A DNA stretch of 64,000 bases from Planctomycetota bacterium (GTDB lineage: Bacteria > Planctomycetota > Phycisphaerae > Phycisphaerales > UBA1924), in the NCBI GenBank assembly GCA_033763975.1, contig JANRJM010000013.1, positions 312,603-376,602 on the forward strand, written 5' to 3'. Made by a program: the position numbers and the translations under genes. Below, piece by piece: positions 11,862 through 35,243 of this stretch. Positions within the stretch are counted from its first letter, which is position 1, and each line of letters begins with the position of its first letter. The notes under the pieces are model-generated. The model worked only from the letters and a program-made list of their open reading frames with translations. It had not been told where the DNA came from and did no database searches.

Positions 11862-11867
11862 TGGCCG

Positions 11868-14014: not shown

Positions 14015-14947
14015 ATGTCCAACGCGATGCCGAGCGTCCGCGACCAGTCCTCGATGGCCCTGACCCCGGCCGAGCTGCGCCTGCTGGACCAGCGTGCGAA
14101 GCTGGCGACGGGCTCGGCGATCCAGAAGGTGCTGTCGCGCCCCGCGCCGACGCTGGTGTCGAAGGTGATGGAGCGCTGGTGCCGCGCCCGGGGCCGGGCC
14201 TACCCCACGCTGGCGACGACGTTCTGGGGCGCGCCGATGCACGTCGTGGTTCCGGACCGCGTGTCGCTGACGATCATGCGGTACGGGTTCTTCGAGGACG
14301 ACCTGACGAAGGTCTTCGCGCTGGTGCTGCGCCCGGGGATGGTGTTCTTCGACGTGGGGTCGCACTTCGGGTACTTCTCGCTGCTGGCCTCGCACCTGGT
14401 GGGCCCGAGCGGGCAGGTGCACGCCTTCGAGCCCACGCCCAGCACGTACGAGGTGGTGTCGAAGAACCTGGCCCCGCTGGCGCACGCGCGGGCGAACAAC
14501 GTCGCGGTGTGGCGCGAGGACAGCGAGATGACGTTCCGGGATTTCGGGGTCGAGTTCAGCGCGTTCAACTCGCTGGGGGCGAGCAAGCTGACGCAGGCCG
14601 AGCTGGCGCGTGCGCGGGTGCGCGAGGTGAAGGTCCGGGCCCGCTCGCTGGATTCGTACGTCGCCGAGACGGGCGTGGCGCCCGACTTCCTGAAGATCGA
14701 CACGGAGGGCGCGGAGCTCGACGTGCTGCGCGGGATGGAGCGTCTGCTCGCCGAGAAGCGTCCGGCGCTCACGCTGGAGGTGGGGGACGTGGGCACGCAG
14801 GCCGGCGATCGCGAGAGCCGGCGCGTGGTCGACCACATGCTCGCGCGCGGGTACGACGCGTTCGAGCTCGCCGGCGACCGGCTTGTCCCGCACACGCCCC
14901 GGGAGCGGTATGACTACGGGAACATCCTGTTCGGCCCCCGCGCCTGA
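14015..14947 (+). CDS. FkbM family methyltransferase
   Basis: FFDVGSHFGYFS, VHAFEPTP, FLKIDTEGAELDVLRG. Confidence 0.9.
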   Translation: MSNAMPSVRDQSSMALTPAELRLLDQRAKLATGSAIQKVLSRPAPTLVSKVMERWCRARGRAYPTLATTFWGAPMHVVVPDRVSLTIMRYGFFEDDLTKVFALVLRPGMVFFDVGSHFGYFSLLASHLVGPSGQVHAFEPTPSTYEVVSKNLAPLAHARANNVAVWREDSEMTFRDFGVEFSAFNSLGASKLTQAELARARVREVKVRARSLDSYVAETGVAPDFLKIDTEGAELDVLRGMERLLAEKRPALTLEVGDVGTQAGDRESRRVVDHMLARGYDAFELAGDRLVPHTPRERYDYGNILFGPRA

Positions 14948-14963
14948 GGCGCCGGCCCCCGCG

Positions 14964-16499: not shown

Positions 16500-17743
16500 G
16501 CGACGATGCGACGCAGCCAGACGGCGCGCCTCCGTCCCGCGGGCGGGGCGGTGGGGCCCTGCGGCGCGCCGTCGGCGCGCTCGGCGCGCTGGGGTGCGCC
16601 GTGTCGGTGCTCGTGTGGGCGATCGGGGCCCTGCTGAGCGACCGCGCCCACTGGTCGCAGTACGCGGCGTGGGTGCCGACGTGGGCCAGCCTCGGCGGGG
16701 CGGGCGTGCTGTGGGGCGTGTGGGGCTTCGCCCGGCGGGCCGGCTCGCGCTGGGAACGTGCCACAGGCAGGCCGCGCCGGAGACGGGCGTGGGGCCTGTA
16801 CGCGTTCGCGCTCGTCATCGCGGCGGGGCTCGCGTGGATGGTCGTGGTCGAGTGGCGCGTGCCGCGTGGGTTCGTGACGCACGCGACCAGCCCACGCGGG
16901 GCGCGCGTGCTGGTGTGGAACCCGTCGTGGGAGCGCATGTCGGCGTTCCACGCGCGCCTGCTCGAGCACGACCCGGACGTCGTGCTGGTCTCGAACCCGC
17001 ACCCGCACGCCGACTGGAGCGCGCTCCACGCCGGCATGGGCGACCGCACCTACGCGCTGCGCCAGGGCATGCTGGTCGTCGTGAGCCGCTTTCCCATCCG
17101 GCGGTTCGGCTGGACGGGGCTGCGGGTGGCGCCCGAGCCGGGGCGGCCGTCGTGGTGGAAGGCGCCGCGCACGTCGGCCTCGGGCGGCGAGGCGCTGTTC
17201 GTGCAGCTCGACGCGCCCGCGCTGACGGGCAACACGCCGGGCGCGTTTGACGCCGTTGCCCCCCCCGCGCCGCTGACGATCTGGTTCGTCGACCTGCCGT
17301 CGGACATGTGGATCCATCGCGAGCGCATGCTGCGCGAGGCGCGCCGGGCGATCGACGCGTTCCGGGGGCCCGTGCTGCGCCGATCCGACGACGGGCTGGA
17401 CGTGCCCGAGCAGACGCTGCGGCTGGGCCCGCTGCTGCCGGGCGGGGGCCTGACGGTCGACGGGGCCGAGCCCGCGGCCGGGTTCCCGCCGCCGGATTTG
17501 GTGGTCGGCGATCTCAACACCCCGCGCGGCAGCCGCTCGCTGCGGCACCTGGGCGCGGGGCTCACGCACGCGCACGACCAGGCGGGGCTGGGCCCGGGGG
17601 TGACGTACCCGCGCCCGCTGCCGGTGGTCGCGATCGACCACGTCTTCGTCGGGCCACGCCTGCGAGCGGCACGGTTTCTGACGGCGGACCTGGGCGTGAG
17701 CCGCCACCTGGCGCAGGTGGTGGATGTGGAGGCGGCGAACTGA
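16496..17743 (+). CDS. Membrane-anchored endonuclease/exonuclease/phosphatase (EEP) family protein
   Basis: Three N-terminal TM helices; VLVWNP, DPDVVLVSN, LVVGDLNTP, IDHVFV, SRHLAQVVDV; GTGA overlap with wzx. Confidence 0.78.
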   Translation: MSDDATQPDGAPPSRGRGGGALRRAVGALGALGCAVSVLVWAIGALLSDRAHWSQYAAWVPTWASLGGAGVLWGVWGFARRAGSRWERATGRPRRRRAWGLYAFALVIAAGLAWMVVVEWRVPRGFVTHATSPRGARVLVWNPSWERMSAFHARLLEHDPDVVLVSNPHPHADWSALHAGMGDRTYALRQGMLVVVSRFPIRRFGWTGLRVAPEPGRPSWWKAPRTSASGGEALFVQLDAPALTGNTPGAFDAVAPPAPLTIWFVDLPSDMWIHRERMLREARRAIDAFRGPVLRRSDDGLDVPEQTLRLGPLLPGGGLTVDGAEPAAGFPPPDLVVGDLNTPRGSRSLRHLGAGLTHAHDQAGLGPGVTYPRPLPVVAIDHVFVGPRLRAARFLTADLGVSRHLAQVVDVEAAN

Positions 17744-17747
17744 CCGG

Positions 17748-18800
17748 CTACTCGTGCCGTCGGTCGGAGAGCTTGTGCCCGGCGTCGCGCAGGGTCTTCT
17801 CGCGCTGCGCCAGTTCCATGTCGTGCTCGACCATCATCTTCACGAGGTCGTCGAAGCTGGTCGTCGGCACCCAGCCGAGCTTGCCTTTGGCCTTGGCATA
17901 GTCGCCCAGCAGCAGGTCGACCTCCGCGGGGCGCAGGTAGCGCGGGTCGAAGGCGACGAAGTCGCGGTAGTCCATCCCCGCGTGGGCGAAGGCCTTCTCG
18001 GCGAAGTCGCGCACCGACCACGTCTGGTTCGTCGCGATCACGTAGTCGTCGGGCTTGTCCTGCTGCAGCATCAGCCACATCGCCTTGACGTAGTCGCCCG
18101 CGAAGCCCCAGTCGCGCTTGCTGTCGAGGTTGCCCAGGTGCACCTTGTCCTGCAGGCCCATCTTGATCCGCCCGACCGCCCGGGTGATCTTCCGCGTCAC
18201 GAACGTCTCGCCCCGCCGGGGCGACTCGTGGTTGAACAAAATCCCGCACGACGCGTGCAGGTCGTAGCTCTCGCGGTAGTTCACCGTCGCCCAGTGCGCC
18301 ATCACCTTCGCGCACGCATAAGGCGAGCGCGGGTAGAACGGCGTCGTCTCGGTCTGCGGCGTCTCGATCACCTTGCCGAACTGCTCCGAGCTGCTCGCCT
18401 GGTAGAACCGCACCTGCTGCCCCGACTCCTGCTGGAACTCGCGGATCGCCTCCAGGCAGCGCATCGCCCCCATCGCCACCGTGTCGGCGGTGAACAGGGG
18501 CATGTCGAACGACACCCGCACGTGGCTCTGCGCGCCCAGGTTGTACACCTCGTGCGGACGCACCTTGCGCATCAGGTCCGCCAGCACGCTCGCGTCGCAC
18601 AGGTCGCCGTAGTGCAGGCGCAGCCGCGCCGCCGAGTAGTGCGGGTCTTGGTAGATCGGGTCGATCCGCGCCGTGTTGAACGACGACGAGCGACGGATGA
18701 TCCCGTGCACCTCGTACCCCTTGGCGAGCAGGAACTCGGCCAGGTACGACCCGTCCTGCCCGGTGATGCCCGTGATCAGCGCACGCCGCGTCGTCGTCAT
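17748..18800 (-). CDS. gmd: GDP-mannose 4,6-dehydratase
   Basis: [60 protein letters not shown]. Confidence 0.96.
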
Positions 18801-18825
18801 GGCGGAAACTTCCTCTCCGGCGCCC

Positions 18826-20436
18826 TCACGGTGCGCGGTTCTCGGACCCGGGGCCCACCGGCCCACCCTCAAGTGTCGATTGTCGGCCATCGTAGACGGG
18901 TGTTTGACCTCCACCGGCCGGATCCGCCGACGCGCCCGCGTCCGGCGGCGGCTCGATGTTCCCGGGCGTGAACCCGTGGTCCGTCGCCGGCGCCCCCTTC
19001 GCCAGCGACAGCAGCGTCACCAGCCCCAGCAGCCCCGCGAGCGTCAGCGGCCCGAGCACCCGGGCCGCGCCCATTGGCCGATCGAATCTCGATGACGCCG
19101 GCAACGTGCCGGCGGGCGCCCCGTTGGACAGCGCCACGGCGAACGCGCACCAGATGAGCACGAACGGCTCGTGGTACCGCTGCCACAACTGCTCGCTCGC
19201 GCACTGGGCCGCCGCGAACCCCGCCAGGGCCGCGAGCATGATCCAGCGCCGTCGCCGGTCCATCCCGCCCAGCCACAAGACGACGCACGCCGCCCCCAGC
19301 GGCGCGAGCGCGAGCAGCACGACCGACGTGCGCCCGCCCAGCACCGGCCCCGCGCGAACGCCCGTCCAGATGCCGGAGAACCGTCCGGCCTCGAAGCTGT
19401 ACGTGGTCTCGGGGATCCCCGCCGCCAGCACGCCCAGCCCGACCGCCACGACCAGCGCGACGCGGTGCGCGCGCCACGCGTGCCCCGCCAGCGGCCAGAG
19501 CCAGCCCGCGTGGAACACGCCCACGATCCCCACCAGCGACAGCACGAACGCCGGCGTCGCCCACTGGATGCCCGGCGAATACCACCCCACGAACGTCGGG
19601 GGCGTCAGATGCCCGCCCCACAGTTGGTAGAACCACCCGAGCAGCGCGGCCGCCGGCACGGTGGCCCCGAACCCCAGCGCGACGCGCCCCAGCCACGCAC
19701 GCGCACGCTCCGGCAGCAGGTCGGCCGGGTGGAACAACGCCGCACGTTCATCCGCCGGGGCCGGCGTGCCGGCGCGAACAAGCGAACCCGAGACCCACGC
19801 CGCGGCCCAGACAACCCCCGCCGCCCACACGTGGATCTGACGGAACATCACGAGCGCGACGAGCACCGCACCGGCGGCGATGATCGTGCCGCGCGACCCC
19901 GAACGCAGCAGCAGGGCGAGCAGTGCTGCGACGCACAGCCACGCCGCGTTGTCGGGGAGCAGCCAGACGCCCGCGCTCACGACGTAGAGCGAGCAGACCA
20001 GCGGGAGCGCGAGCAGCACGCCCCGGCGGGCACTGCCCGTCCACGAGGCGCCGCACCCGGCGACGAGCGCGACGAGCCCCAGCGTGAACAGCGAGCCGGC
20101 GAGTTGGAGCGCGACCCGCCCGTCGGAGAGCACGCGCGCGACGCCGGCGAGCAGGACGTGGTAGCCGGGCGTGGTGGCGGAGAGGTAGTCCGAGAAGTCC
20201 GGCGCGGGGAGTTGCTCGGCGAATGTTCGGATGACCTTCTCGTGGTAGTTCACCTGGTCGCTGGCACCGCGCCCGCGCATGGACTGCGAGAGGACCAGGG
20301 GCCAGCAGGCCGCCGCGGCGAGGGCAACGCCGAACCCCGCCGCCCGGAGCGGGGTAGAGTGACCGGACCGGACGTCCGATAGACGTTTGTCCGGGGTCGA
20401 AGCATCGGGCGTCGGGTTGGTCGGGGTCGATGACAT
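18826..20436 (-). CDS. GT-C fold integral membrane glycosyltransferase, ALG10/DIE2-like
   Basis: About 12 TM helices; SDQVNYH...[19 protein letters not shown] and QRYHEPF parallel recalled ALG10 motifs; start re-placed at ATG 20436. Confidence 0.68.
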
Positions 20437-22214: not shown

Positions 22215-22403
22215 GGCGCCGGGCGGACGGGCGAATCGGGCGAGCGCCCTCGACGGGGATCGCCACGCCGGGCATCATGGTGTAGAGTGTCCCTGTTCGG
22301 GCCCCGTGCGTCGGGGCTTCGGGGACGGTTTCGCTCGCGCGGACGAACGGCGCGTGCGGACATCTGGACGGAGGCCCTGACCGGCCTATTCAGGAGTCGT
22401 GCC

Positions 22404-25286
22404 ATGACGATGCGCCGAGCGTGGACGTTGGCCGCCGCGATGACCGCGGTGTGCGGGTGTGCCGGGGGCGTGCTCGCCCAGGAGGGCACCGAGAAAAAGG
22501 ACGACTTCAAGCCCTGGGCCGAGGTGTCCAAGGACTACTCGCAGGTGGTCTCGACCGCCGGGGGCGAGTCGAGCCTGTACGGCGTGTGGAAGCGCGACAA
22601 GGACGGGCAGATGCTCGCCGAACTCCCGCGCAACTGGTCGAGCCAGCGCCACTTCATCGCGATGACCGTGCCGACCGGCGAGGTCTTCGCCGGGCTGCAG
22701 GCCCAGGACATGTACGTGTACTGGAAGCGCTTCGACAAGCGCATGGCGCTGGTGATGCCCAACGTCGAGGTGCGCTCCACGGGCGACAAGGAGAGCAAGG
22801 ACTCGATCAAGAACCACTTCGTGGATCGCGTGATCATCGACGTGCCGATCGTGGCGATGGGCCCGAGCGGGCAGCCGGTGATCGACCTGGACGAGCTGCT
22901 CGTGCAGAACGCGACGACGTTCTACGGCGCCATGGCGCAGGGCCTCAACTCGCGCCTCGTCACGCTCGACTCGGTGAAGGCCTTCCCGGAGAACGTCGAG
23001 GTGACGTTCACGGCGCCCGCGGCGGGCGGACGCCTCAAGAGCTTCCACTACTCGATCTCGCTCATCAAGGACGACCCGGAGTACAAGCCCCGCGCCGCCG
23101 ACGAGCGCGTCGGGTACTTCACGACCGAGTACCGCGACCTGGGCAAGTTCCAGGACGACAAGGTCAGCACCCGCTACATCAACCGCTGGAAGCTCGAGAA
23201 GGCCGATCCCAACCTCAAGCTCAGCCCGCCCAAGGAACCCATCATCTACTACGTCGAGCACACCGTGCCGACGCGGTACCGGCGCTGGGTGAAGGACGGC
23301 ACGCTGTACTGGAACGCGGCGTTCGAGAAGGTCGGCATCCGCGACGCCGTCGAGGTGTACTACCAGGACAAGACGACCGGGGCCCACATGGACAAGGACC
23401 CCGAGGACGTGCGGTACAACTTCATCCGCTGGCTGAGCAACGACATCGGGACGGCCATCGGGCCGAGCCGCGCCCACCCGATCACCGGGCAGATCCTCGA
23501 CGCCGACATCGTGCTGACAGACGGCTGGATCCGGCACTTCTGGTACCAGGCCAACGAGTACGCCCCGAGCATCGCGATGGAGGGCATGAGCCCCGAGACG
23601 CTCGCGTGGCTCGAGAGCCGCCCCCAGTGGGACCCGCGCGTCCGCCTGGCGCCCCCCTCGCAGCGTGAGCGCATCATGCACGAACGCCTGATGGACCGCG
23701 CCCGCCGGGGCGTGACGGCGTACGGCGGGGCGGGCGTGCCCATGACCGACGTCAGCGTGTCGAACTCGCCCGAACTGCGGGCGATCAGCGACGTCCTGGG
23801 CCCCCGCTACGGGCTGTGCATGGCGAGCGAGGGCATGGCGCGCGACATGGCCGTCATGGGCCTGTACCTCGACGTCGCCGGGCTGCTCGACGACCCGCCC
23901 AGCGGCGGGAAGGACGGCGACAAGGCCGACAAGAAGGACAAGAAGGACGAGCCCGACCGCCTGGACGGGATCCCCGAGTGGTTCGTCGGGCCGGCGCTGG
24001 CGCACCTGACGGTGCACGAGGTCGGGCACACGCTGGGCCTGCGCCACAACTTCAAGGCGTCCGCGCAGTACACCTTCGCCGAGATCAACAGCGAGGCGAT
24101 GAAGGGCAAGCCCTACATCGCGTCGGTGATGGACTACACGCCCGTGAACATCAACATGGACGACAAGCTCGTCCAGGGCGACCACCACATGATCGGCGTG
24201 GGCAAGTACGACATGTGGGCGATCGAGTACGGCTACACCCTGGGCGACACCAAGGACGTGCTGAAGCGCGTGGGCGAGCCCGGGCACGAGTACCTGACGG
24301 ACGAGGACACGGGCGGGCCCGACCCGCTGGCCCGCCGGTACGACTTCGGCAAGGACCCGCTCACCTACGCCAAGAACCTGCTCAGGCTGGCCGAGTACTC
24401 GCGCGGGCGGATCCTCGACTCGTTCGTCAAGGACGGGGAGCCGTGGAGCAAGGCCCGTCGCGGGTACGAGATCACGCTCAACACGCAGAGCACCGCCGTG
24501 AACATCATGGCGAACTGGATCGGCGGGGCGCACGTGAACCGCGATCGCAAGGGCGACAAGGACGCGCGCCCGCCGCTGGAGCCCGTCTCGGCCGGGGCGC
24601 AGCGCGACGCGCTGGAGTTCGTCATCGACTACACCTTCCGCGACGAGGCGTTCGGGCTCACGCCCGAGCTGCTCACGAAGATGGTGGTGAACAAGGACGA
24701 GAACGCCAGCGCCGACCCCGCCTGGGCGGTGCACGACCGCATCTCGGGCATCCAGGCGAGCGTGCTCACGCAGCTCATGAACCCCGGCAAGCTCCGGCGC
24801 GTGTACGACAACGAGTTCTTCACCCCCGCCGACCAGGACCAACTCACCCTCCCCGAACTGCTGAACACCGTCAGCGACGCGGTGTGGACCGAGCTCGACA
24901 AGGGCGTGACGCAGAAGTACACCCCCCGCAAGCCGATGATCTCCAGCCTCCGGCGCGCCCTGCAGCGCGAGCACGCCGAACGCCTCATCGACCTCACGCT
25001 CGACTCGGGGTACAACGTCGCCAACAAGGCCATCGCCAACCTCGCCACCGACAAGCTCCGCGAGATCCAGTCCAAGGTCACCAAGACGCTCGACAAGGGC
25101 GACTCGAACATCGATCCCTACACCAAGGCGCACCTCTCGGAACTCAAGCTCCGCATCACCAAGGCGCTCGACGCCTCGTACATCTACAACGCCCAGGCCG
25201 GCGGCGCCGCCGACTTCCCCTTCTGGCTCTTCATGGGGCAGCAGCAGCCCGCCCCGGCCGCTCCCGCGCCCGCCTCGGGCGAGTAA
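22404..25286 (+). CDS. Exported metzincin zinc metalloprotease (DUF5117/DUF4953-type)
   Basis: Signal peptide; PRAADERVGYF, KEPIIYYV, WNAAFEKVG, HEVGHTLGLRHNF, Met-turn SVMDY; SD AGGAG. Confidence 0.9.
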   Translation: MTMRRAWTLAAAMTAVCGCAGGVLAQEGTEKKDDFKPWAEVSKDYSQVVSTAGGESSLYGVWKRDKDGQMLAELPRNWSSQRHFIAMTVPTGEVFAGLQAQDMYVYWKRFDKRMALVMPNVEVRSTGDKESKDSIKNHFVDRVIIDVPIVAMGPSGQPVIDLDELLVQNATTFYGAMAQGLNSRLVTLDSVKAFPENVEVTFTAPAAGGRLKSFHYSISLIKDDPEYKPRAADERVGYFTTEYRDLGKFQDDKVSTRYINRWKLEKADPNLKLSPPKEPIIYYVEHTVPTRYRRWVKDGTLYWNAAFEKVGIRDAVEVYYQDKTTGAHMDKDPEDVRYNFIRWLSNDIGTAIGPSRAHPITGQILDADIVLTDGWIRHFWYQANEYAPSIAMEGMSPETLAWLESRPQWDPRVRLAPPSQRERIMHERLMDRARRGVTAYGGAGVPMTDVSVSNSPELRAISDVLGPRYGLCMASEGMARDMAVMGLYLDVAGLLDDPPSGGKDGDKADKKDKKDEPDRLDGIPEWFVGPALAHLTVHEVGHTLGLRHNFKASAQYTFAEINSEAMKGKPYIASVMDYTPVNINMDDKLVQGDHHMIGVGKYDMWAIEYGYTLGDTKDVLKRVGEPGHEYLTDEDTGGPDPLARRYDFGKDPLTYAKNLLRLAEYSRGRILDSFVKDGEPWSKARRGYEITLNTQSTAVNIMANWIGGAHVNRDRKGDKDARPPLEPVSAGAQRDALEFVIDYTFRDEAFGLTPELLTKMVVNKDENASADPAWAVHDRISGIQASVLTQLMNPGKLRRVYDNEFFTPADQDQLTLPELLNTVSDAVWTELDKGVTQKYTPRKPMISSLRRALQREHAERLIDLTLDSGYNVANKAIANLATDKLREIQSKVTKTLDKGDSNIDPYTKAHLSELKLRITKALDASYIYNAQAGGAADFPFWLFMGQQQPAPAAPAPASGE

Positions 25287-25334: not shown

Positions 25335-25368
25335 GACCCCGGCTCGCCCGAGCCGGGGTCTTTTCGTT
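25335..25368 (+). terminator. Intrinsic terminator
   Basis: GACCCCGGCTC-GCCC-GAGCCGGGGTC perfect 11-bp stem followed by TTTTCGTT. Confidence 0.88.
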
Positions 25369-25465: not shown

Positions 25466-27232
25466 TCACGCCCCCGCGCAGTACCCCCGCCACATCGCGC
25501 GCAGCGCCCCATCGAAGCGTGCCGCGAACGCGGCCGCGTCGCACACGGGCGATCCGCGCAGCTTCTCGCGCAGCGTGGATCGGTACGACGCGAGCCGCGG
25601 GGCATCTGCCACCAGCGACGAAGCGAGGTCGACGTACGCGTCTTCGCTGTGCGCGATCAACTCGGGCGCGCCCGCGTTCGTGAGCAGCGACACGCCCACC
25701 CGCCCCGCGTGCGTGCGCCCCGCGAGCGTCACCACCGGCACGCCCATCCAGAGCGCCTCGCACGTCGTCGTCGTGCCGTGGTACGGGAACGCGTCGAGCG
25801 CGACGTCCATGCGCGCGTAGAGCGCCAGGTGGTCGGCCAGCGTCGGCGTCGCCGCGAGGAACGCGAGGCGTGCGGCGTCGACGCCCAGGCGCACGAACTC
25901 CTCGCGGATGCGGTCCGCCGCCCCGCGCGACGCGAAGTCGAAGCTCTTCAGGATCAGCGTCGAACCCGGCACGCGCGTCAGCAGGCGCGTCCACAGCGCG
26001 ATGAGTCCGCGGTTGATCTTGCGGCTCGCGTTGAAACTGCCGAAGACGGGCCCGGGAAACGCGGCATCGCGCGATGGCGCGGGCGCACCTTCCAGCGGGC
26101 GATAGCACAGGAAGCACGGGTCGAGCCGGCACAGCCGCTCGGCCGCGTGCGCGTCGACCTCGGGCGTGGGCGGGTCGGTGAGGGAATCGACGATGCGGTA
26201 GTCGATCTCCGACAGGCCCGTGGTGTCGGGGTAGCCGCAGTACGTCGCCTGCACGGGCGCGGGGCGGAGCGCGAACGCCGGCAGGTTGTTGCCCAGCGTG
26301 TGCCCCGCGAGGTCCAGGGCGATGTCGAGCCGGTCGGCGTGCATGAGGCGCGCGAGCTCGATGTCCGTGAGGTTCGGGCAGTCGCGCCACAGCGACGCGT
26401 GCGGGCGCAGGCGATTCGTCACGCGGTCGGGCGAACGCGTCGTCGAGTACGCGATCAGTTCAATGCGCGACCGGTCGTGACGCTCGAAGAAGGGCTCGAC
26501 AAAGAACGAGACCGAGTGCTGGCGCAGGTCCGGCGAGACGACGCCCACCCGCAGGCGCCTCTCCGGATCGCGCGGGGCCGTGTGCTCGAAGCGCAGCCCG
26601 GGCGGGCGCTGGCGGCGCAGCAGGGCGGCGTACGCCCGGTGCGTCGACGCGATCTCCGCGGGGTCGGCGCCGTACTGGTACGTCAGCGCCACGGGCAGCC
26701 CGGCGACGAGCATCGGCTCGTCGGGGTACAGCCGGATGGCCTCGCGCGTGAACGCGACCGTCTCTTCGATCTTGCCCATCGTCAGCAGCGCGCCCGCGTA
26801 CGACACGCTCAGTTGCGGGTCGGCGCGGCGGGCGAGCGCACGCTCGAGCAGCGCCGCCGCCGCCGGCGAGTCGTGCCCGTCCATCAGCGCGTTCGCCAGC
26901 GCCAGGCACGCGCCGGGATCGTCGGGATCTGTCTCGACCGCCCGGCGCAGCAGCGCCAGCGCGTCGGCCGGCTTCTGGCGCGCGTGCAGCACCGTGGCGA
27001 GCGCGACCATGAGCGGCGCGCTCGCGGGCTCGGCCTGCAGGGCGCGCCCCGCGTAATACTCCGCCTGCTCGTACCGCCCCATGCGCAGCAGGATCGACGC
27101 CATCAGGCTGTTCAGCCCGGGGTCGCCCGGTCCCTTGGGCAGCAGGCGCTGCGCGATCGCCAGCGCCTCGGGCGCCTTGCCGTCGCGGAGCAACTGCTCG
27201 GCCTGCTGCACCTTCGCGAGGATCTGGCTCAT
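25466..27232 (-). CDS. TPR + GT41 (SPINDLY/OGT-like) glycosyltransferase 1
   Basis: N-terminal TPR-like helices; LRVGVVSPDLRQHSV, DLAGHT, APVQATYCGYPDTTGL, FGSFNASRKI, DAFPYHGTTTTCEALWMGVP. Confidence 0.92.
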   Translation of the reverse strand: MSQILAKVQQAEQLLRDGKAPEALAIAQRLLPKGPGDPGLNSLMASILLRMGRYEQAEYYAGRALQAEPASAPLMVALATVLHARQKPADALALLRRAVETDPDDPGACLALANALMDGHDSPAAAALLERALARRADPQLSVSYAGALLTMGKIEETVAFTREAIRLYPDEPMLVAGLPVALTYQYGADPAEIASTHRAYAALLRRQRPPGLRFEHTAPRDPERRLRVGVVSPDLRQHSVSFFVEPFFERHDRSRIELIAYSTTRSPDRVTNRLRPHASLWRDCPNLTDIELARLMHADRLDIALDLAGHTLGNNLPAFALRPAPVQATYCGYPDTTGLSEIDYRIVDSLTDPPTPEVDAHAAERLCRLDPCFLCYRPLEGAPAPSRDAAFPGPVFGSFNASRKINRGLIALWTRLLTRVPGSTLILKSFDFASRGAADRIREEFVRLGVDAARLAFLAATPTLADHLALYARMDVALDAFPYHGTTTTCEALWMGVPVVTLAGRTHAGRVGVSLLTNAGAPELIAHSEDAYVDLASSLVADAPRLASYRSTLREKLRGSPVCDAAAFAARFDGALRAMWRGYCAGA

Positions 27233-29028
27233 GCGCCCTGTCCCCACGCGCGCGCCGCGCCCGGCCCGGCGCGCCCGCACCACGCGCGCCAGAGATCACG
27301 CAGCGCGCCCTCGAACCCGCGCGCGTGGGCCGCGTGGTCGCCGATCGGCCCGTGGCGCACCGCGTCGCGCAGCGTGCGACGCAGCGACGCGAGGCGCGCG
27401 CGGTCCTGCGCCAGCGCCGCGGCCCGGGCGACGTACGTCGCATCGTCCGGCGCCACCAGGTCCGCCAGCCCCGCGCTGCCGAGCAGCGATGCGCCGACCC
27501 GCGACCGGTGGGTGCCCCCATCGCGCGTGACGACGGGCACGCCCATCAGCAGCGACTCGACGGTGCTCGTGGTGCCCGCGTACGGGAAGGGGTCGAGCGA
27601 GACGTCGGCGTGGTGGTACGCCGCCAGGTGCGCACGCGGGTCGGGCTCGAAGGGCGTGAAGACCAGCGCGGCGGGCGTGCCGCCCGCGTTGGTCCACGCC
27701 CGGCGCACGAGCGCGTCGAGCCCGGGCGTGGGCTCGGTCTTCATGAGCAGGCGCGCGCCGGGCAGCGACGCGAGCACCCTCGCCCACAGGCCCAGCACGC
27801 GCGGGTTGGTCTTCGCGACGCGGTTGAAGCACGCGAACGTCGGCGCCCCGGCGTGCCCGCGCAGGTACGCGCTGGGCGCGGGCTCGGGCACGTCGGGCAT
27901 CACCGCGTACGACAGGAAGCAGCCCGGCAGGCGCACGACGCGCTCGCTGCACTGCGCCTCCGCGCCGGGCGGGTCGGTGACGGCGTCGACCAGGCGCGCG
28001 TCCATCGCGGGCAGGCCCGTGGTGTTCGGGTAGCCCAGGTACGTGCACTGCACCGGCGCGAGCCGCCGGGCGAACGCGCGCAGGCGGTGCTCTCCGGTCC
28101 AGCCGTTGCAGTCGACGAGCACGTCGACGCCGTCGGCGCGCACGAGGTCTTCGAGATCGTCGTCGCGCAACGTGCGGATCTCGCGCAGCGGCGCGATCGA
28201 CGCGAGGTTGGCCGTCGTCTCGTCGGGCTCGTTGTTCGCGTAGAGGATCGGCTGCGCCCGCGCGGGGTCGAGCGACGCCACCAGCCCCGCCAGGAAGAAC
28301 GCGCACGCGTGGAACCGCAGGTCGCCCGACACGAACCCCACGCGCAGCGGGCGCTCGGGGTCGCGCGTGTTCGCGAACGGCAGGATGGCGCCCGGCCCCA
28401 TCGCGGTTACGACCTCGCCCAGGCGCCGGTGCAGCGCCGCGTGCTCGGCGGCGTCGGTCGCCGGGTCGAAGTTCATCACGTAGCACAGCGTCTCGAGGAT
28501 GTCGGGGTCGTCGGGCAGTCGCCCCAGCGCCCGGCGCAGCAACGCCACGCCCTCGGGCGCCTGGCCCAGTTGCGCGTGCATCGCGCCCGCGCGGCAGTGG
28601 GCGCCGGGCGCGTCGGGCGCCGCCCGCGTCATCCCTTCCAACGCCGCCCGCACGCCCTCGGGGCGATCGAGCGCCAACATCGCGCGTGCGCGGCATTCGA
28701 ACGCGAGCGCGTCGTGCGCCGGCGCTCGATCGAGGATCGCCAGCGCGTCGTCGGGTGCGCCCGCGAGCACGAGCGCGTCCGCCGCGTCGCGCTGCAGGGC
28801 GGCGTCGTCCGGGTACGCGCCCGCCGCCCGGCGGAGCACGTCGGCGCCCGCCGCCTGCTCGCCCAGCAGCGCGTGCACGCGCGCAAGCGTGCGCAGCAGG
28901 TCGCCGTCGCGGGGCGACGCCCTGAGCCCTTCGACAAGGATGGCCTTCGCCCGTGCGGCGTCCCCGCCCTGGAACGCGCGGGCGGCGGCGTCGATCACGC
29001 GGGAAGCGGCTGGCGCGGGCTGGCTCAT
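27229..29028 (-). CDS. TPR + GT41 (SPINDLY/OGT-like) glycosyltransferase 2
   Basis: LRVGFVSGDLRFHA, DCNGWT, APVQCTYLGYPNTTGL, FNRVAKT, DPFPYAGTTSTVESLLMGVP. Confidence 0.92.
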   Translation of the reverse strand: MSQPAPAASRVIDAAARAFQGGDAARAKAILVEGLRASPRDGDLLRTLARVHALLGEQAAGADVLRRAAGAYPDDAALQRDAADALVLAGAPDDALAILDRAPAHDALAFECRARAMLALDRPEGVRAALEGMTRAAPDAPGAHCRAGAMHAQLGQAPEGVALLRRALGRLPDDPDILETLCYVMNFDPATDAAEHAALHRRLGEVVTAMGPGAILPFANTRDPERPLRVGFVSGDLRFHACAFFLAGLVASLDPARAQPILYANNEPDETTANLASIAPLREIRTLRDDDLEDLVRADGVDVLVDCNGWTGEHRLRAFARRLAPVQCTYLGYPNTTGLPAMDARLVDAVTDPPGAEAQCSERVVRLPGCFLSYAVMPDVPEPAPSAYLRGHAGAPTFACFNRVAKTNPRVLGLWARVLASLPGARLLMKTEPTPGLDALVRRAWTNAGGTPAALVFTPFEPDPRAHLAAYHHADVSLDPFPYAGTTSTVESLLMGVPVVTRDGGTHRSRVGASLLGSAGLADLVAPDDATYVARAAALAQDRARLASLRRTLRDAVRHGPIGDHAAHARGFEGALRDLWRAWCGRAGPGAARAWGQGA

Positions 29029-29082
29029 CGGCGGTGCTTCCGGCTCCTCGCGGCGTCGGCTCGTGCGGTCGGGCGCATGCGG

Positions 29083-30852
29083 CTAGGCCCCGCTCCGGCA
29101 CCACTCGCGCCAGAGCTCCCGCAGCGTGCCCTCGAACCGGCGCGCAAAGCCCGACGCATCGACCAAGGGCGACGCGGCCATGCGCTGGCGAGACGTCGCG
29201 TGGTACGCCGCCAGGCGCGCCGGATCGCGCGCCAGATCGACCGCGATGCGCACGTACTCGTCGGGCGTGGGGGCGATGAGTTCGGGCGAGCCCAGCGTCG
29301 CGAGCAGCGACGCCCCGACGCGGGCGCGGTGGGTGTCGCCCGCGAGCGCCACGACGGGCACGCCCATCCACGTGCACTCGCACGTGGTCGTCGTGCCGTT
29401 GTACGGGAAGCTGTCGAGCGCGATGTCCATGAGGCGGTAGTTGGGGAAGTGCTCGCCGGGCTTCTTCGACCACGGCGCGCTGCGGATGCGCGCGGGATCA
29501 ACGCCGTGCTCCGCGAAGCGGGCGGCGAACGCCGGGGCCACCTCGTCGGCCGCCACCTGGATCTTGATCAGCAGCGTGCTGCCGGGCACCTCGCGCAGGA
29601 TGCGGGCCCACGTCGCGACGGCCGTCGGGCCGACCTTCATCACGCGGTTGAACGAGCCGAACGTGACACCCGCTGCCCCGGGGCTCGCGCTCGGCGGCGT
29701 GGGGTCGAACTGCGCCGGCGCCTCGGGCGGGGGCTGGTAGCACAGGAAGCACCCCGGCAGCCGCGCGAGACGCTCCGTGCAGTGCGCGTCGGCGATCGGC
29801 GCGGGGTCGGTGACGGCGTCGACGAGCCGGTGCCCCACGCTCGCCAGCCCCGTCGTGTTCGGGTAGCCCAGGTACGTGCACTGCACGGGCGCCAGGCGCC
29901 GGGCCGCGGCGTGCATCACGCGGCGTTCCGTCCAGCCGCAGCACTCGACGACCACGTCGATCGCGTCGGCGTGCATCATGGCGGCGATCTCGTCGGGCGT
30001 GCGCCCGTTGCAGTCGCGCCACTCGCCCAGCGTGCGGAACCGCGCGGTGAACTCGTCGTCGCGCGTGGGCAGCGCGTACAGGTACGGCACAAGGCGGGCC
30101 CGGTCGAACTCGCGCAGCGGGCCCAGCAGGAAGAACGCGCACGCGTGGAAGTAGAAGTCCGCCGAGAGGAACGCCACGCGCAGCGGACGCTCCGGATCGC
30201 GCACGTTCGCGAAGGGCGCCGCGGGGGCGGCGGGCAGCGTGCGCCCCAGCGCGGCGTGCTCGTCGCGGTGCGCGATGGGGTCGACGCCGTCGGCGAAGTT
30301 GCGGTAGTACGCGAGGAACTCCAGCAGCGAGGCGTCGCCGGGGATGCGCGCCAGCCCGCGCTCGGCGACGCGCAGGGCCGCGTCGATCCGCCCGATCAGC
30401 GCGAGCGACACGCCCATGCGGAAGTAGAGGTCCGGGTTGTCGGGCGCGACCCTGAGCCCCGCCTCGTACGCCTCCATCGAGCGGTCGTACTCGCCCAGCC
30501 CCAAGAGGCACTTGCCCAGCCCGTCGTGCGCCTCCAGGTTGGCGGGGTTCAGCTTCGCCGCGGCGGTGTACGCCCGCACGCCGTCCTTGTACCGGCGCAG
30601 GATCGTGCACACGTTGCCCAGCATGAACTGGATCTCGGCGTCGTTCGGCGCCGCGAGGGCGGCCCGCGCGATGAACACGTACGCCTGCTCGTCCTCGTGC
30701 AGCGCGCCGTGGATCATCGCCAGCACCTTGTTCGCCTGCGCGTCCTGCGGCGCGCGCTGCAGCGTCTGGCGGAGCGTCGCCTTCGCCTGCTCGGCCTTCC
30801 CGCCCTCGAAGAGCGCGATGGCGTTCTGGATGGCAGCGGCGGCTCGCGACAC
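29083..30852 (-). CDS. TPR + GT41 (SPINDLY/OGT-like) glycosyltransferase 3
   Basis: TPRs; LRVAFLSADFYFHA, ECCGWT, GYPNTTGL, FGSFNRVMKV, DSFPYNGTTTTCECTWMGVP. Confidence 0.92.
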   Translation of the reverse strand: MSRAAAAIQNAIALFEGGKAEQAKATLRQTLQRAPQDAQANKVLAMIHGALHEDEQAYVFIARAALAAPNDAEIQFMLGNVCTILRRYKDGVRAYTAAAKLNPANLEAHDGLGKCLLGLGEYDRSMEAYEAGLRVAPDNPDLYFRMGVSLALIGRIDAALRVAERGLARIPGDASLLEFLAYYRNFADGVDPIAHRDEHAALGRTLPAAPAAPFANVRDPERPLRVAFLSADFYFHACAFFLLGPLREFDRARLVPYLYALPTRDDEFTARFRTLGEWRDCNGRTPDEIAAMMHADAIDVVVECCGWTERRVMHAAARRLAPVQCTYLGYPNTTGLASVGHRLVDAVTDPAPIADAHCTERLARLPGCFLCYQPPPEAPAQFDPTPPSASPGAAGVTFGSFNRVMKVGPTAVATWARILREVPGSTLLIKIQVAADEVAPAFAARFAEHGVDPARIRSAPWSKKPGEHFPNYRLMDIALDSFPYNGTTTTCECTWMGVPVVALAGDTHRARVGASLLATLGSPELIAPTPDEYVRIAVDLARDPARLAAYHATSRQRMAASPLVDASGFARRFEGTLRELWREWCRSGA

Positions 30853-30929
30853 GGGCGTGCCGATCGTAGTCGATTTCCCTCGCGGATCCCCCGCCCCCTG
30901 GTACGATTTCAGGCGTTGGGAGGTCCACC

Positions 30930-31778
30930 ATGCGGGCGATCATCGCGACGGGCGCGTGCGTGCTGCTGGCGATCGGCGCCCAGGCCGCGGGCGGGCGACA
31001 GCCCGACGCGCGTCCGCCGCTCTCCGGGCCGGTCGTCCCCCCGCGTCTGGCCCCGGCCCTCTCGCTCGTCGAGCGCGCGTTCGACGGATCCGTCAGGGCG
31101 CCGGACCGTCCGCCGGAAGAGGCCGCCCTCGACGCGCTCGGGCTCACCGCCCCGGACGCAACCCCCGCGCAGCGCGCCGCGTGGGAGGCGGCGTCGGGCG
31201 TGCTCGCCGAGCGGGCCCGGATGCTCGACCACGCGGTGGGCACGAACATCGACCTGCTCGTGATGCTGAGCGTCGCGGAGGGCACGGACGACGGGCTCGA
31301 CAAGCTCATGCTCGGGCTCAAGGCCTACGAGGTGCTGGCGCCCCTGCGCGCCAAGGGCACGCTGCGCGCCCAGATCGCGGGCGTGCTGCCCGAGCCCGAA
31401 CGCGCCGAGTTCGAGCGCCTGCTCGACGAGTACTGGGGCTCGCTCGTCCGCGACCGGCGCGCGCAGCCCAAGCCCGACGGCGGGCGGCCGGCACGCGGCG
31501 AGATCATCCTGGCGGCCCGGGGCGAGTCCTTCGGGCGCGAGGTCGAACGGTCGTTCCAGCGCCTCGTCAAGTCCGGCGAACTCATCTACCGCTACGCGAC
31601 GCGCGGCATCCGCCTGAGCGTCCCGCAGCAGCGCCGGCTGCGCGAGCTCGCCGCCGACCACGCTGCCAAGGGCGACAACGCGAGCGAAGAGGACAACCGG
31701 CGCCTGTTCCTGGGCGCGCTGCGCACGCTGCACGTGTGGCAGCGTCCGCGCTTCGTCCGGAACCTGCAGGGGACCTAG
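30930..31778 (+). CDS. Exported helical hypothetical protein
   Basis: GGAGG SD; signal peptide MRAIIATGACVLLAIGAQA; 282 aa of natural composition. Confidence 0.72.
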   Translation: MRAIIATGACVLLAIGAQAAGGRQPDARPPLSGPVVPPRLAPALSLVERAFDGSVRAPDRPPEEAALDALGLTAPDATPAQRAAWEAASGVLAERARMLDHAVGTNIDLLVMLSVAEGTDDGLDKLMLGLKAYEVLAPLRAKGTLRAQIAGVLPEPERAEFERLLDEYWGSLVRDRRAQPKPDGGRPARGEIILAARGESFGREVERSFQRLVKSGELIYRYATRGIRLSVPQQRRLRELAADHAAKGDNASEEDNRRLFLGALRTLHVWQRPRFVRNLQGT

Positions 31779-32460: not shown

Positions 32461-33414
32461 ATGCGCGTGGTCCTGGTGGGGAATCCGAAGTCCGGGCGTG
32501 GGCGTGCCGCCCGCGTGCTCGAGGAAACCGCGCACGCGCTGCGGACCGCCGGGCACGAGTGCACGGTGCTGACCGACCTCTGCGCGACCGACGGCCCGTG
32601 CTCGGCCTGGGCCGGCGGGGGCGACGCGGTGGTCGTCGCCGGGGGCGACGGCACGATCCACTCGCTCCTCCCGGCCTTGCGGAACGAATCGGTCGGCATC
32701 CACCACGCCCCGCTGGGCACCGAGAACCTCTTCGCGCGCGAGTTTGGCATGCGTGCGGACGGGGCGTTCGTCGCCCGGGCCGCCAAGAAGGGCGTCTTCG
32801 ACCGCGTTGACCTGGGCCTCATCCGACACGCCGAGGCCGAGATTCCCTTCGCCATCATGTGCAGCATCGGGCCCGACGCGGGCGTGATCCGGCGTCTGCA
32901 CGCCGTCCGCAACGGCCCGATCTCGCACGCGTCCTACGCCATGCCGGTGATGCGCGAGACCTTCCGCCCGGCGCTCCCGCGCCTCACCATCGAGGCCGAC
33001 GGTCGCACGCTGTGCGACGCGGAACGAGGCCTGCTGGTCGTCGCGAACATGCGCCAGTACGCGCTCCGCGCCGACCCGGCGTGGCGCGCCGACCCCCGCG
33101 ACGGGCTGCTCGACCTCGTGTTCATGCCCTGCGCCAGCGCGCTGGGCGCGGGCGTCCGCCTGCTCGAGGCGCGCCTCCGCCGGCATCGGCGCGACGTGCT
33201 CCACGTCCGGGCGAGCACCGTCCGCGTGCGCACCCTCGACGACGCCCCCGTGCAGGTCGACGGCGAGTGCCTCCAGCTCGCCCCGGGCGGGCTCGACATC
33301 TCGTTCGGCGTCGCGCCCCTCGCGCTGCGCGTGCTCATGCCCGATCAGGGCGCGACGGTCGTCGCGGGCGCCGCGGCGTCCGGCGGCGTCGCCGCCTTGC
33401 GGGCCACCGTGTAG
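32461..33414 (+). CDS. Diacylglycerol kinase family (YegS/DgkB-like) lipid kinase
   Basis: VGNPKSGRG, VVAGGDGTIH, PLGTENLFAR, PVQVDGE. Confidence 0.9.
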   Translation: MRVVLVGNPKSGRGRAARVLEETAHALRTAGHECTVLTDLCATDGPCSAWAGGGDAVVVAGGDGTIHSLLPALRNESVGIHHAPLGTENLFAREFGMRADGAFVARAAKKGVFDRVDLGLIRHAEAEIPFAIMCSIGPDAGVIRRLHAVRNGPISHASYAMPVMRETFRPALPRLTIEADGRTLCDAERGLLVVANMRQYALRADPAWRADPRDGLLDLVFMPCASALGAGVRLLEARLRRHRRDVLHVRASTVRVRTLDDAPVQVDGECLQLAPGGLDISFGVAPLALRVLMPDQGATVVAGAAASGGVAALRATV

Positions 33415-34511
33415 AGCGCGAACAGGTCCGACTCCAGGTGCATCGGCGACGGTCCCTTGTCCCAGCCCAGCGCCTTGCCCAGCGCCCGCGCCGCCTCGTC
33501 GTCGCTCGCGTCGAACACCAGCACCTCGAGCCCCGCCGCCGCGAGCATCTCGCGCGGGAACGGGCAGCGCCCGTCGGCCCACGGGATCCACTCGTCGGGG
33601 TTCTGCTTCTGCGCCGGGCTGAGGTTGTAGATCAGGAAGATCCCGCCGGGGAGCAGCGCGTCGGCGACGCCCTTGACGAACGCCTCGTTCGGCACGCCCA
33701 GGTCCACCAGCATCCGCTTGTCGACCTCGCGCTCCGGGTTGATGTACCCGTTCTTGAGCGTGTTCTTGCTCATGATGAGGTCGAACCCGCCGCCCACCGT
33801 CGCCGCCACCTCCGCGTCCGCCGGCCAGCGCCCGTGCGCCAGCGACACCGTCCCGTCCGGGCAGGTGTCGGACATCAGCACGATCCCGGGGATCGTGCCC
33901 GTGTCCTCCGGGCGGCTGTACAACGCCGGCAGACGCGGATCGACATCGACGCCCACGCTGTGCACACCGATGCTCGCCAGCAGGCGCAGGTGCCCGACCG
34001 TGCCGTAGCCGAAGTCCAGCACGCGACGCGACCGCAGGGGCGACTGACCCGTGAAGTACTGGCACGCGAGCTCCAGCGGCCTCGCATACGCCAGGGGCGA
34101 GCCGTACCGCGTGTAGTAGTAGTCCTTGGACGTGAACGTCACCGGCTGGAAGGTCTCACGCGCCTCGGGCGCCAGGCGTTCGAACTCCTCGGGCGTCAGC
34201 GCCGCGCGCGTCTCGCGGCTCCAGTGCAGCACCCGATCTTCCGGGATGGGCAGGAAGCTCGTCGCGATGAGAAACCGCCGGACATCCACGCAGCGCACGC
34301 TCGGCAGCACCGCCGCCGCCTCGCTCCGTAACTCCTCTACAACGCTCGGCTTGTACGGATCCTCGGCGGGCGCCTCCGGCGCCGGTTCGGTAGCGGCAGG
34401 GTTCGTGGGGGGCGCCGGGGGCGTTGCGGGCGGGGTCGAGTCCTGCGCCCACGACGCTCCGCCCGCCAGAACACTCGCGAACACCGCCGCCGCGATCACG
34501 CGTTGACCCAT
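33345..34511 (-). CDS. Exported protein with a class I methyltransferase-like fold
   Basis: Signal peptide MGQRVIAAAVFASVLAGGASWA, Pro-rich linker, VLDFGYG, VGVDVD, FDLIMSKNTL. Confidence 0.7.
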   Translation of the reverse strand: MGQRVIAAAVFASVLAGGASWAQDSTPPATPPAPPTNPAATEPAPEAPAEDPYKPSVVEELRSEAAAVLPSVRCVDVRRFLIATSFLPIPEDRVLHWSRETRAALTPEEFERLAPEARETFQPVTFTSKDYYYTRYGSPLAYARPLELACQYFTGQSPLRSRRVLDFGYGTVGHLRLLASIGVHSVGVDVDPRLPALYSRPEDTGTIPGIVLMSDTCPDGTVSLAHGRWPADAEVAATVGGGFDLIMSKNTLKNGYINPEREVDKRMLVDLGVPNEAFVKGVADALLPGGIFLIYNLSPAQKQNPDEWIPWADGRCPFPREMLAAAGLEVLVFDASDDEAARALGKALGWDKGPSPMHLESDLFALYTVARKAATPPDAAAPATTVAP

Positions 34512-34634
34512 GAATGATGACTCCCAGAGCGCAGCCGCGCCGCGCGGAACGATATGACCACCCGGGACCATCACCCGAAAGCCGGGCCCGCGGCTTCCCA
34601 ACCGGTCCGGTGTAGACTGTCGCCCGAGTTGAGC

Positions 34635-35243
34635 ATGACCCCCGACCCGTCCGAGCCCCCGCCCCCGGCCATGCCGCCCATCCCCGCGGCGCCCCCCGTG
34701 CGCCCCGGCGTGGTCGGGGCCCCGCCCCGCCCGCCGGTCTGGCCGACGGTGCTCGGGGTCATCGGCATCGCGCTGGGCGCGCTGGGCGCCCTCGGCTCGG
34801 CGTGGGGCATCATCGCGCCGTTCCTGATGGACTTCATCGCAGAATACATGCCCCAGGGCGAGCAGGGCGTGGCGGCGTTCAAGGAGCACGCGCTGCACTC
34901 GGCGATCTATTCATTCGTCGCGCTGTGCCTGTCGGTGCTGCTCCTGGTCGGATCGGCCGCGCTGGTCCGCCGGCGGCGATCGTCGGCCCGCACGCTGCGC
35001 GTGTACGCGCTCCTGAAGATCCCCGAGGCGCTGTGGGGCGTGTGGCTCACGTATCTGGCCCAGACGTCGCAGATGCGGGCGCTCGAGGGCCAGCCCGGCG
35101 CCCCGCCCCCCGCGCTCGTCGACATGATCGGCATGCTCACCGTGGCCGTCGCGCTGGTCTGGTCGCTGTCCCTGCCCGTATTCCTGCTCGCATGGTTCTC
35201 CCGCGAGCGCATCAAGAGCGACATCGAGCGCTGGTTCGCATGA
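34635..35243 (+). CDS. Membrane protein with Pro-rich N-terminus
   Basis: Four TM helices; ATGA-coupled to the next gene. Confidence 0.75.
   Translation: MTPDPSEPPPPAMPPIPAAPPVRPGVVGAPPRPPVWPTVLGVIGIALGALGALGSAWGIIAPFLMDFIAEYMPQGEQGVAAFKEHALHSAIYSFVALCLSVLLLVGSAALVRRRRSSARTLRVYALLKIPEALWGVWLTYLAQTSQMRALEGQPGAPPPALVDMIGMLTVAVALVWSLSLPVFLLAWFSRERIKSDIERWFA

Follow-up and report, generated by a model that had tools for sequence, protein, structure and literature searches.

Which sugar is transferred, and onto which proteins, by three tandem SPINDLY (SPY)-like glycosyltransferases is the question raised by a gene array in a 64,000-nucleotide stretch of DNA from a Planctomycetota bacterium of the order Phycisphaerales (GenBank assembly GCA_033763975.1, contig JANRJM010000013.1, positions 312,603 to 376,602 of the forward strand); the whole of this stretch is referred to as the window, and positions are numbered from its first letter. 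The array comprises genes A, B and C, each encoding N-terminal tetratricopeptide repeats (TPRs) followed by the Pfam domain Glyco_transf_41 (PF13844) of glycosyltransferase family 41 (GT41). SPY enzymes are known to O-fucosylate proteins in plants, Toxoplasma and Dictyostelium, and the SPY structure papers infer the same role for bacterial SPY-like genes. By sequence, and for gene A also by its structural model, all three proteins are assigned to the SPY-like clan of GT41; the best explanation of the locus, held with about even confidence, is an operon of cytoplasmic, short-TPR (~5 repeats) SPY-clan enzymes that use a GDP-linked L-hexose on proteins.

A sequence-only reading of this DNA had described three co-oriented TPR-GT41 paralogues of ~590 aa with a 54-bp gap and a 4-bp overlap, and the open reading frame (ORF) list bears this out with proteins of 589, 599 and 588 aa on the minus strand. 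The array is laid out as follows, where HxC/GWT and HSV/GHT denote the residues aligned with positions 495-497 and 570-572 of AtSPY, the SPY enzyme of Arabidopsis thaliana and a nucleocytoplasmic protein O-fucosyltransferase:

30852 to 29083, minus strand: gene A, TPR and GT41, first in the array, 589 aa, GTG start (ORF list)
29029-29082, minus strand: A-B spacer of 54 bp (direct sequence reading)
29028 to 27229, minus strand: gene B, TPR and GT41, second HxC/GWT copy, 599 aa (ORF list)
27229-27232, minus strand: 4-bp ATGA overlap of the gene B stop with the gene C start
27232 to 25466, minus strand: gene C, TPR and GT41, HSV/GHT type, 588 aa from the ATG at MSQIL (ORF list)

An extension of gene C to 27283 from a GTG start is possible. 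The A-B spacer contains a GAGGAG Shine-Dalgarno-like element ~15 nt 5' of the gene B ATG, and the ATGA overlap between B and C is read as a sign of translational coupling; as part of the best explanation, and at the same even confidence, the three genes are predicted to form one operon. PF13844 matches gene A at E 7e-42, gene B at about 8e-34 and gene C at 2e-42 (117-146 bits, cutoff 25), while the TPR and NGT matches from NCBIfam are all sub-threshold. None of the three proteins has a signal peptide, and a cytoplasmic location is therefore expected, as the sequence-only reading had supposed.

Full-length pairwise identity among the proteins is 38-43% (E 3e-87 to 1e-132), which marks them as old paralogues, the product neither of recent duplication nor of chance; recent duplication or an assembly artefact is rejected on this identity and on the retention of orthologues for each copy. 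Their G+C content at third codon positions (GC3) is 0.94-0.96, equal to that of adjacent genes in a window of ~72% G+C, and horizontal acquisition of the array is rejected on that basis; on these sequence grounds A, B and C are native, intact genes. A scan of genome contigs with gene A returned nothing but TPR-only matches in unrelated metagenome-assembled genomes (MAGs) and no orthologous genome, and an exact-sequence look-up of gene A returned no record.

Family placement and donor-site residues

All three proteins were ranked with phmmer against solved structures in the PDB, and the best solved relative of each is AtSPY (7Y4I, 8DTF), with E values of 3e-101, 4e-74 and 9e-98 for A, B and C respectively; gene A is 32-33% identical to it across ~545 residues. 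TtOGT comes next, then human and fly OGT and XcOGT, with HMW1C/NGT far behind. The bit scores for A/B/C are:

AtSPY: 343/253/332
TtOGT: 206/235/267
Human OGT (hOGT): 205/136/181
XcOGT: 121/160/141
HMW1C: 40 or less

The AlphaFold2 model of gene A, built from a 73-sequence alignment, has a predicted local distance difference test (pLDDT) score of 95.8 and features 12 N-terminal helices (~5 TPRs and a connector) ahead of a GT-B domain; it contains no inserted (intervening) domain, and the catalytic lobes of A, B and C are contiguous in the SPY alignment. A Foldseek search of the PDB with this model ranks AtSPY structures in the first eight places, at E 1e-42 to 1e-44 and query-normalised TM-scores of 0.75-0.79; the OGTs and TtOGT (1e-33 to 1e-35) and XcOGT (1e-30) follow, and every match is a GT41 enzyme. 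Membership of GT41 thus follows from the PF13844 match together with a GT-B fold behind helical repeats, the fold being taken from the gene A model, and from the catalytic His (hOGT H498, AtSPY H495) and Lys (hOGT K842, AtSPY K665) found in A, B and C. The bacterial SPY-like group is presumably that of COG3914, 'SPINDLY family'.

The sequence-only reading had proposed a GT41 phylogeny as a check; a neighbour-joining (NJ) tree built on 357 columns of the catalytic domain, with XcOGT as root, few reference sequences and hOGT left out, groups A, B and C with AtSPY and leaves TtOGT outside in 70/100 bootstraps, a moderate value, and A, B and C exclude AtSPY in 61/100. That reading had also placed the enzymes nearer to SPY than to OGT, and the phmmer ranking, the Foldseek result for gene A, the tree and the residues described below agree.

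Membership of the HMW1C/NGT group (PDB 3Q3E, 8J30) is rejected: the GT41 fold is shared, but similarity is weak (PDB E 1e-7 to 1e-9) and the NF049992 scores of 18-35 bits stand against a cutoff of 1000. The HMW1C/NGT enzymes have an all-alpha N-domain in place of TPRs and use UDP-glucose as donor. The two bacterial structures TtOGT (Thermobaculum terrenum, PDB 5DJS) and XcOGT (Xanthomonas campestris, PDB 2JLB), which rank second and fourth among the groups of solved relatives, are short-TPR proteins of 520-570 aa like those of the array; however, in AtSPY numbering TtOGT has I/T/Y at 689/731/744 with Leu at 728, XcOGT has L/R/Y, and both carry HP after the catalytic His where the window proteins have HS or HA. 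They score 60-220 bits below AtSPY, although TtOGT against gene B falls just 18 bits short; XcOGT binds UDP-GlcNAc analogues.

In AtSPY, K689 hydrogen-bonds guanine N7/O6 where hOGT has L866, A731 stands in the place of the uracil-binding R904 of hOGT, and Y744, which is C917 in hOGT, hydrogen-bonds fucose and clashes with GlcNAc (PMC9715652; PMC10027727). Activity is abolished by K665A, K689A, E752A, Y744A, V497R and I592R; S496A retains ~30%, T747A 10% and T748A 20%, and H495 is essential (PMC9715652; PMC10027727). G570 and T572, the sites of spy-12 and spy-13/14, lie near the fucose (PMC10027727). The signature of the SPY-like clan at 689/731/744 is K/variable/Y (PMC10027727 Suppl. Table 2), and the clan includes the protein O-fucosyltransferases (POFUTs) TgSPY (K/V/Y) and Dictyostelium DdSPY (K/Y/Y) (PMC10027727); bacterial members tabulated in the same source are Rhodospirillum rubrum YP_427939 (K/V/Y) and Burkholderia lata YP_367586 (K/A/Y) (PMC10027727 Suppl. 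Table 2). These tabulated proteins have the same TPR-GT41 plan as A, B and C, with K689, a non-Arg residue at 731 and Y744, and are biochemically uncharacterised; the annotation 'SPINDLY family' is routine in bacteria and K/x/Y sequences from bacteria are already on record.

The residues of A, B and C were mapped in AtSPY numbering through phmmer alignments and a MAFFT alignment. The positions at which the sequences vary are:

AtSPY: 495-497 H-S-V; 570-572 G-H-T; 592 I; 662 N; 731 A; 769 A
Gene A: 495-497 H-A-C; 570-572 G-W-T; 592 L; 662 R; 731 N; 769 R
Gene B: 495-497 H-A-C; 570-572 G-W-T; 592 L; 662 R; 731 A; 769 R
Gene C: 495-497 H-S-V; 570-572 G-H-T; 592 C; 662 A; 731 L; 769 A

K665, K689, H728, Y744, T747, T748 and E752 are kept in all three proteins, and the signature reads K/N/Y in gene A, K/A/Y in gene B and K/L/Y in gene C; with K689, a non-Arg residue at 731 and Y744, the three pass the published test for SPY-like enzymes and fail that for OGT/SEC. 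Membership of OGT/SEC is rejected on these residues, which replace L866/R904/C917, and on the lack of the intervening domain found in metazoan OGTs. The conserved motifs named by the sequence-only reading are all present: FNxxxK occurs as FNRVMK, FNRVAK and FNASRK in A, B and C respectively, GYPxTTG as GYPNTTG, GYPNTTG and GYPDTTG, and PYxGTT as PYNGTT, PYAGTT and PYHGTT. The changes of HS to HA and GHT to GWT that it saw in copies 2 and 3 (in plus-strand order, genes B and A) are likewise found there, with HS and GHT kept in gene C. For the five residues that contact fucose (496, 497, 592, 744 and 747), gene C has S, V, C, Y and T, four of them as in AtSPY; in A and B the set reads A, C, L, Y and T, with two identities and the rest conservative replacements.

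Two Phycisphaerae subfamilies and their arrays

Homologues at E <1e-30 number in the thousands, and those with names come nearly all from Phycisphaerae, Phycisphaerales, Tepidisphaera and other Planctomycetota MAGs. An alignment of 241 sequences (236 database homologues, the three window proteins and the segments of AtSPY and TtOGT) shows near-complete conservation of the donor-site residues (K665 in 240, K689 in 233, H728 in 237, Y744 in all 241, T747 in 239, T748 in 240 and E752 in 239), and contains two types: ~129 sequences, gene C among them, are of the HSV/GHT type, and ~98, including genes A and B, are of the HxC/GWT type, mostly HAC. The HxC clade is monophyletic in 86/100 bootstraps of the NJ tree. 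Seven positions are fixed differently between the subfamilies (423, 443, 496, 497, 531, 571 and 769); among these, 496 and 497 contact fucose or its methyl group and 571 lies between G570 and T572. The fixed differences at 496, 497 and 571 indicate that the split is a conserved remodelling of the sugar/acceptor pocket rather than decay, and fit the suggestion of the sequence-only reading that donor or acceptor specificity has diversified, since HA/GWT is a conserved subfamily trait at that pocket.

Each window gene has one-to-one orthologues in related loci (L004 to L013). Gene A is 78% identical to the first gene of the L004 array (L004_g1) and 61% to that of L009 (L009_g1); for gene B, compared with the second genes in these two arrays, the values are 64% and 53%, and for gene C, with the third, 76% and 67%. 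Gene B is the fastest-evolving copy, at 64% to its L004 orthologue (8229-10004) compared with 76-78% for A and C, and keeps all catalytic residues despite the faster change. The arrangements in relatives, with the identity to gene C where given, are:

L004/L005: HAC-HAC-HSV triplet, flanks as in the window (76%)
L009: HAC-HAC-HSV triplet (67%)
L008: HAC-HSV doublet (66%)
L006 (Tepidisphaera): HAC-HSV doublet (64%)
L010: HAC-HSV doublet (52%)
JGI metagenome 3300047160, contig of 27,678 bp: six tandem TPR-GT41 genes, one HAC followed by HSV types
L011: HAC and HSV genes split by a small opposite-strand ORF
L012 and L013: more distant HxC-type genes, solitary

The proteins of the six-gene array are 566, 608, 599, 615, 600 and 588 aa long. 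An HxC gene lies directly upstream of an HSV gene, with a stop/start overlap, in 7/10 related genome arrangements; this overlap is 4 bp in the window, L004/5, L006, L008 and L009, 1 bp in L010 and, as called, 25 bp in the six-gene array. The retained overlap is compatible with a complex of both types. The literature search found no GT41 arrays described in Planctomycetes, and among the tabulated bacterial SPY-like proteins neither the two-subfamily split nor coupled arrays of 2-6 genes were found described; against the literature found, the two conserved active-site subfamilies, with differences concentrated at the fucose/acceptor site, and the coupled HxC-to-HSV arrays of 2-6 genes whose proteins lack the Asn ladder of SPY and OGT both appear to be new.

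As a side observation, the six-gene array is flanked by Rce1-like, L13 and S9 genes, and the same trio stands at 47883-50618 of the window, ~17 kb away from genes A to C, so rearrangement between lineages has affected either the array or its flanks.

Neighbouring genes and GDP-sugar supply

Apart from the array, the features of the window that bear on its donor and acceptor are:

30930-31778, plus strand: secreted protein of 282 aa with a signal peptide, divergent from gene A
30853-30929: divergent intergenic region of 77 bp between gene A and the gene for the ~280-aa secreted protein
25335-25360: perfect GC-rich palindromic hairpin with an 11-bp stem, between the convergent gene C and Met-zincin gene
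22287-25286, plus strand: Met-zincin of 999 aa with the motif HEVGHTLGLRHNF, convergent with gene C
17748-18914, minus strand: gmd, 6.5 kb from the array (TIGR01472 match of 533 bits, cutoff 415)
~14883-16499, plus strand: Wzx-type flippase of a polysaccharide cluster
13160-14947, plus strand: two tandem FkbM methyltransferases of the same cluster
11859-13148, plus strand: GT1 of the same cluster
10814-11818, minus strand: candidate fcl, ~14 kb from the array
9413-10813, minus strand: full-length homologue of GDP-mannose 3,5-epimerase (GME; E 7.5e-94 to PDB 8SG0 and 2C59), adjoining fcl

The ~280-aa secreted protein has no match in Pfam or NCBIfam, nor any PDB sequence match even at E <=1. Its gene is divergent from the first GT41 gene in five loci, namely the window, L004 (5500-6381), L008 (7279-8097), L009 (5502-6320) and L011 (4982-5827); the L011 homologue is 39% identical (E 1e-54) in a locus whose other flanks differ. 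It is not found beside the arrays of L006, L010, L012 and L013 or beside the six-gene array. Two roles are conceivable for this protein, co-regulated partner and acceptor, on the model of HMW1C and its substrate HMW1; alternatively, its place may reflect mere synteny. Promoters presumably lie within the 77-bp region, in which a promoter scan returned no sigma-70 consensus. The hairpin downstream of gene C is terminator-like, with its T-run on the plus strand while the GT41 array is on the minus strand; one such hairpin in the scan is no more than expected by chance.

The assignment of 10814-11818 as fcl is reasonable: the solved structures that match it best, over the full length, are GDP-L-fucose synthases without exception (E 8e-56), although it scores 212 bits against the NCBIfam equivalog cutoff of 500. 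On this gene content the organism can make GDP-L-fucose, and probably GDP-L-galactose. The presence of the GME homologue, which is of the plant type, indicates that this planctomycete makes GDP-L-galactose or GDP-L-gulose. All three genes lie within a separate exported-polysaccharide cluster at 9413-19016, which is the obvious consumer of GDP-L-sugars; its product is probably a methylated glycan with L-fucose and L-galactose. A UbiA-family gene and, on the opposite strand, the 999-aa DUF5117/DUF4953 Met-zincin gene lie between gmd and the array. With at least three other-strand genes intervening, a shared transcription unit of gmd/fcl and the array is rejected. The Met-zincin gene is syntenic in L004/5 and not in other relatives.

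Among seven distinct flanking contexts, two have GDP-fucose genes close to the array (within 10-15 kb): one is the arrangement shared by the window and L004/5, with gmd close by, and the other is L010, where an fcl orthologue (51% identity) lies 9 kb away. The flanks available for the L008/L009 context, for L006, for the context of L011 and the six-gene array, and for L012 and L013 show none; an SDR gene near the arrays of L008 and L009 is merely 24-27% identical to Gmd, Fcl or GME. By a rough post-hoc estimate the proximity is somewhat above chance, yet it is neither conserved nor operonic. The nearby gmd and fcl genes noted in the sequence-only reading are therefore present, gmd firmly and fcl reasonably, but the link of the array to them is weak, as they belong to a separate Wzx cluster and are not a regular companion of the arrays.

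Further from these subjects, several long ORFs with high GC3 (~190-1000 aa) at 39537-42578, 2-4555 and 33345-34910, all on the minus strand, have no Pfam match at E <=1e-4. A gene for a GAF and SpoIIE (PP2C-type) phosphatase, a component of Ser/Thr signalling, leaves the window end at 62061-63998 (minus strand).

Donor, acceptor and competing explanations

In the proposed operon of SPY-clan enzymes, each protein would bind a GDP-linked L-hexose in its C-terminal lobe, with the guanine held by K689, H728 and backbone atoms, the pyrophosphate by K665, the ribose by T748 and E752, and the sugar by Y744 and T747; a single sugar would then be moved onto Ser/Thr hydroxyls of proteins presented by the TPR domain. 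Gene C, in which S496, V497 and G-H-T at 570-572 are kept and Cys replaces I592 in the second wall of the methyl pocket, would be the likeliest true GDP-L-fucose:protein O-fucosyltransferase among the three. In A and B, the changes S496A, V497C, H571W and A769R would remodel the pocket for the fucose C6-methyl and the orientation of the acceptor, and these two enzymes probably prefer another sugar or acceptor; the derived type and the canonical type coupled to it would work together, or successively on the same targets. The analysis demonstrates the gene structure, the placement in family and clan, the conserved residues, the two subfamilies and the layout of the arrays, and donor identity, protein acceptor and cooperation of the paralogues are inferred.

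On the acceptor side the likeness to AtSPY (PDB 7Y4I, 8DTF-8DTI) is smaller. AtSPY has 11 TPRs and an N-terminal auto-fucosylated peptide, unlike the window proteins with their ~5 TPRs and no such peptide, and its gene is not part of a multi-paralogue operon as those of the window are predicted to be. An Asn ladder in the TPR lumen of SPY and OGT holds acceptor peptides, and mutating it abolishes AtSPY activity; at the positions of AtSPY N334, N367/368, N401/402 and N436, and of R408, none of the three proteins has Asn, and gene B contains just one Asn within residues 1-195, its TPR region. The dimer-interface residues L320 and F324 of AtSPY are R63 and A67 in gene A and are not conserved. With the ladder absent and the dimer residues changed, the acceptor binding and oligomeric state of SPY cannot be transferred to these proteins; the missing ladder suggests that acceptors are recognised in a manner unlike that of SPY/OGT, with a narrower or different acceptor set.

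These acceptor-side differences count against the proposed operon of GDP-L-hexose transferases, as does the placement of the GDP-fucose genes, and several further points add to them. Gene C carries Cys at I592, where the sole mutant tested, I592R, kills AtSPY; A and B combine S496A, which leaves AtSPY ~30% of its activity, with V497C; and N662 is replaced by Arg in A and B and by Ala in C. The bootstrap support for grouping with AtSPY is moderate and the reference sampling of the tree is thin, and the solitary HxC genes of L012 and L013 mean that pairing is not obligatory across the subfamily. The literature search found no demonstrated activity for any bacterial SPY-like enzyme, and TtOGT, the closest solved bacterial relative, showed no detectable activity in vitro (PMC9715652).

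It is possible, though unlikely, that the three are GDP-sugar transferases whose donor is not fucose (GDP-mannose, GDP-L-galactose or GDP-6-deoxy-sugars) and whose acceptor may be one dedicated exported protein that receives its sugar in the cytoplasm ahead of secretion, the ~280-aa neighbour being one candidate; HMW1C/NGT enzymes, with their cytoplasmic modification of a dedicated exported protein, offer a possible analogy. The GDP-binding residues are kept while the sugar pocket varies (496/497/571 in A and B, 592 in C), GDP-L-galactose is probably available through the GME homologue next to fcl, the lack of the Asn ladder points to a special acceptor, and the divergent neighbour is kept in five loci including the distant L011. 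However, S496, V497, Y744 and T747 of gene C are the fucose contacts of AtSPY, and the neighbour is not Ser/Thr-rich and is absent from the five arrangements named above.

An improbable alternative is that A and B are weakened or inactive and serve as scaffold or regulatory subunits of a heteromer in which gene C is the sole active enzyme; this would fit the effect of S496A in AtSPY (PMC10027727), the conserved stop/start overlap with a canonical partner, the faster change of gene B and the dimeric state of SPY and OGT. Yet H495, K665, K689, Y744 and E752, each abolishing activity when mutated in AtSPY, are kept in the ~98 HxC members, the variant residues are themselves conserved, which argues for changed function rather than decay, and HxC genes stand alone in L012 and L013.

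That the three are bacterial O-GlcNAc transferases using UDP-GlcNAc, as suggested by homologue annotations ('protein O-GlcNAc transferase', 'SPINDLY family OGT'), the Pfam GT41 match and a fold that is OGT-like overall, is very improbable, as all three have Lys689 (hOGT Leu866), which bonds guanine and for which a clash with uridine is predicted, an equivalent of the uracil-binding Arg904 is lacking throughout, Tyr744 clashes with the N-acetyl group in each, OGT matches fall 100-150 bits below those to SPY, and the annotation names are older than the reassignment of SPY as a POFUT.

A more specific form of the proposed operon of SPY-clan enzymes would be a two-enzyme cytoplasmic module of the Phycisphaerae, in which a canonical O-fucosyltransferase is translationally coupled to an HxC/GWT/R769 paralogue whose remodelled C6 pocket selects another GDP-L-sugar, e.g., GDP-L-galactose from the GME of this window, both acting on a defined set of bacterial proteins in a heteromeric or sequential manner; it is regarded as improbable in this full form. 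If the enzymes prove inactive or ordinary and OGT-like, the locus would be one more annotated 'SPINDLY family' paralogue cluster; if the two-enzyme module is true, it would be the first O-fucose system in bacteria and would contain the first GT41 enzyme with a new donor. The array provides good candidates for asking whether bacteria O-fucosylate proteins, as it offers compact ~590-aa enzymes in which the GDP-binding determinants are intact, together with a natural pair of active-site variants at the sugar/acceptor pocket; the locus makes approachable the questions of cytoplasmic O-fucosylation in bacteria, of the residues that set sugar specificity in GT41, and of how an acceptor is chosen without the Asn ladder.

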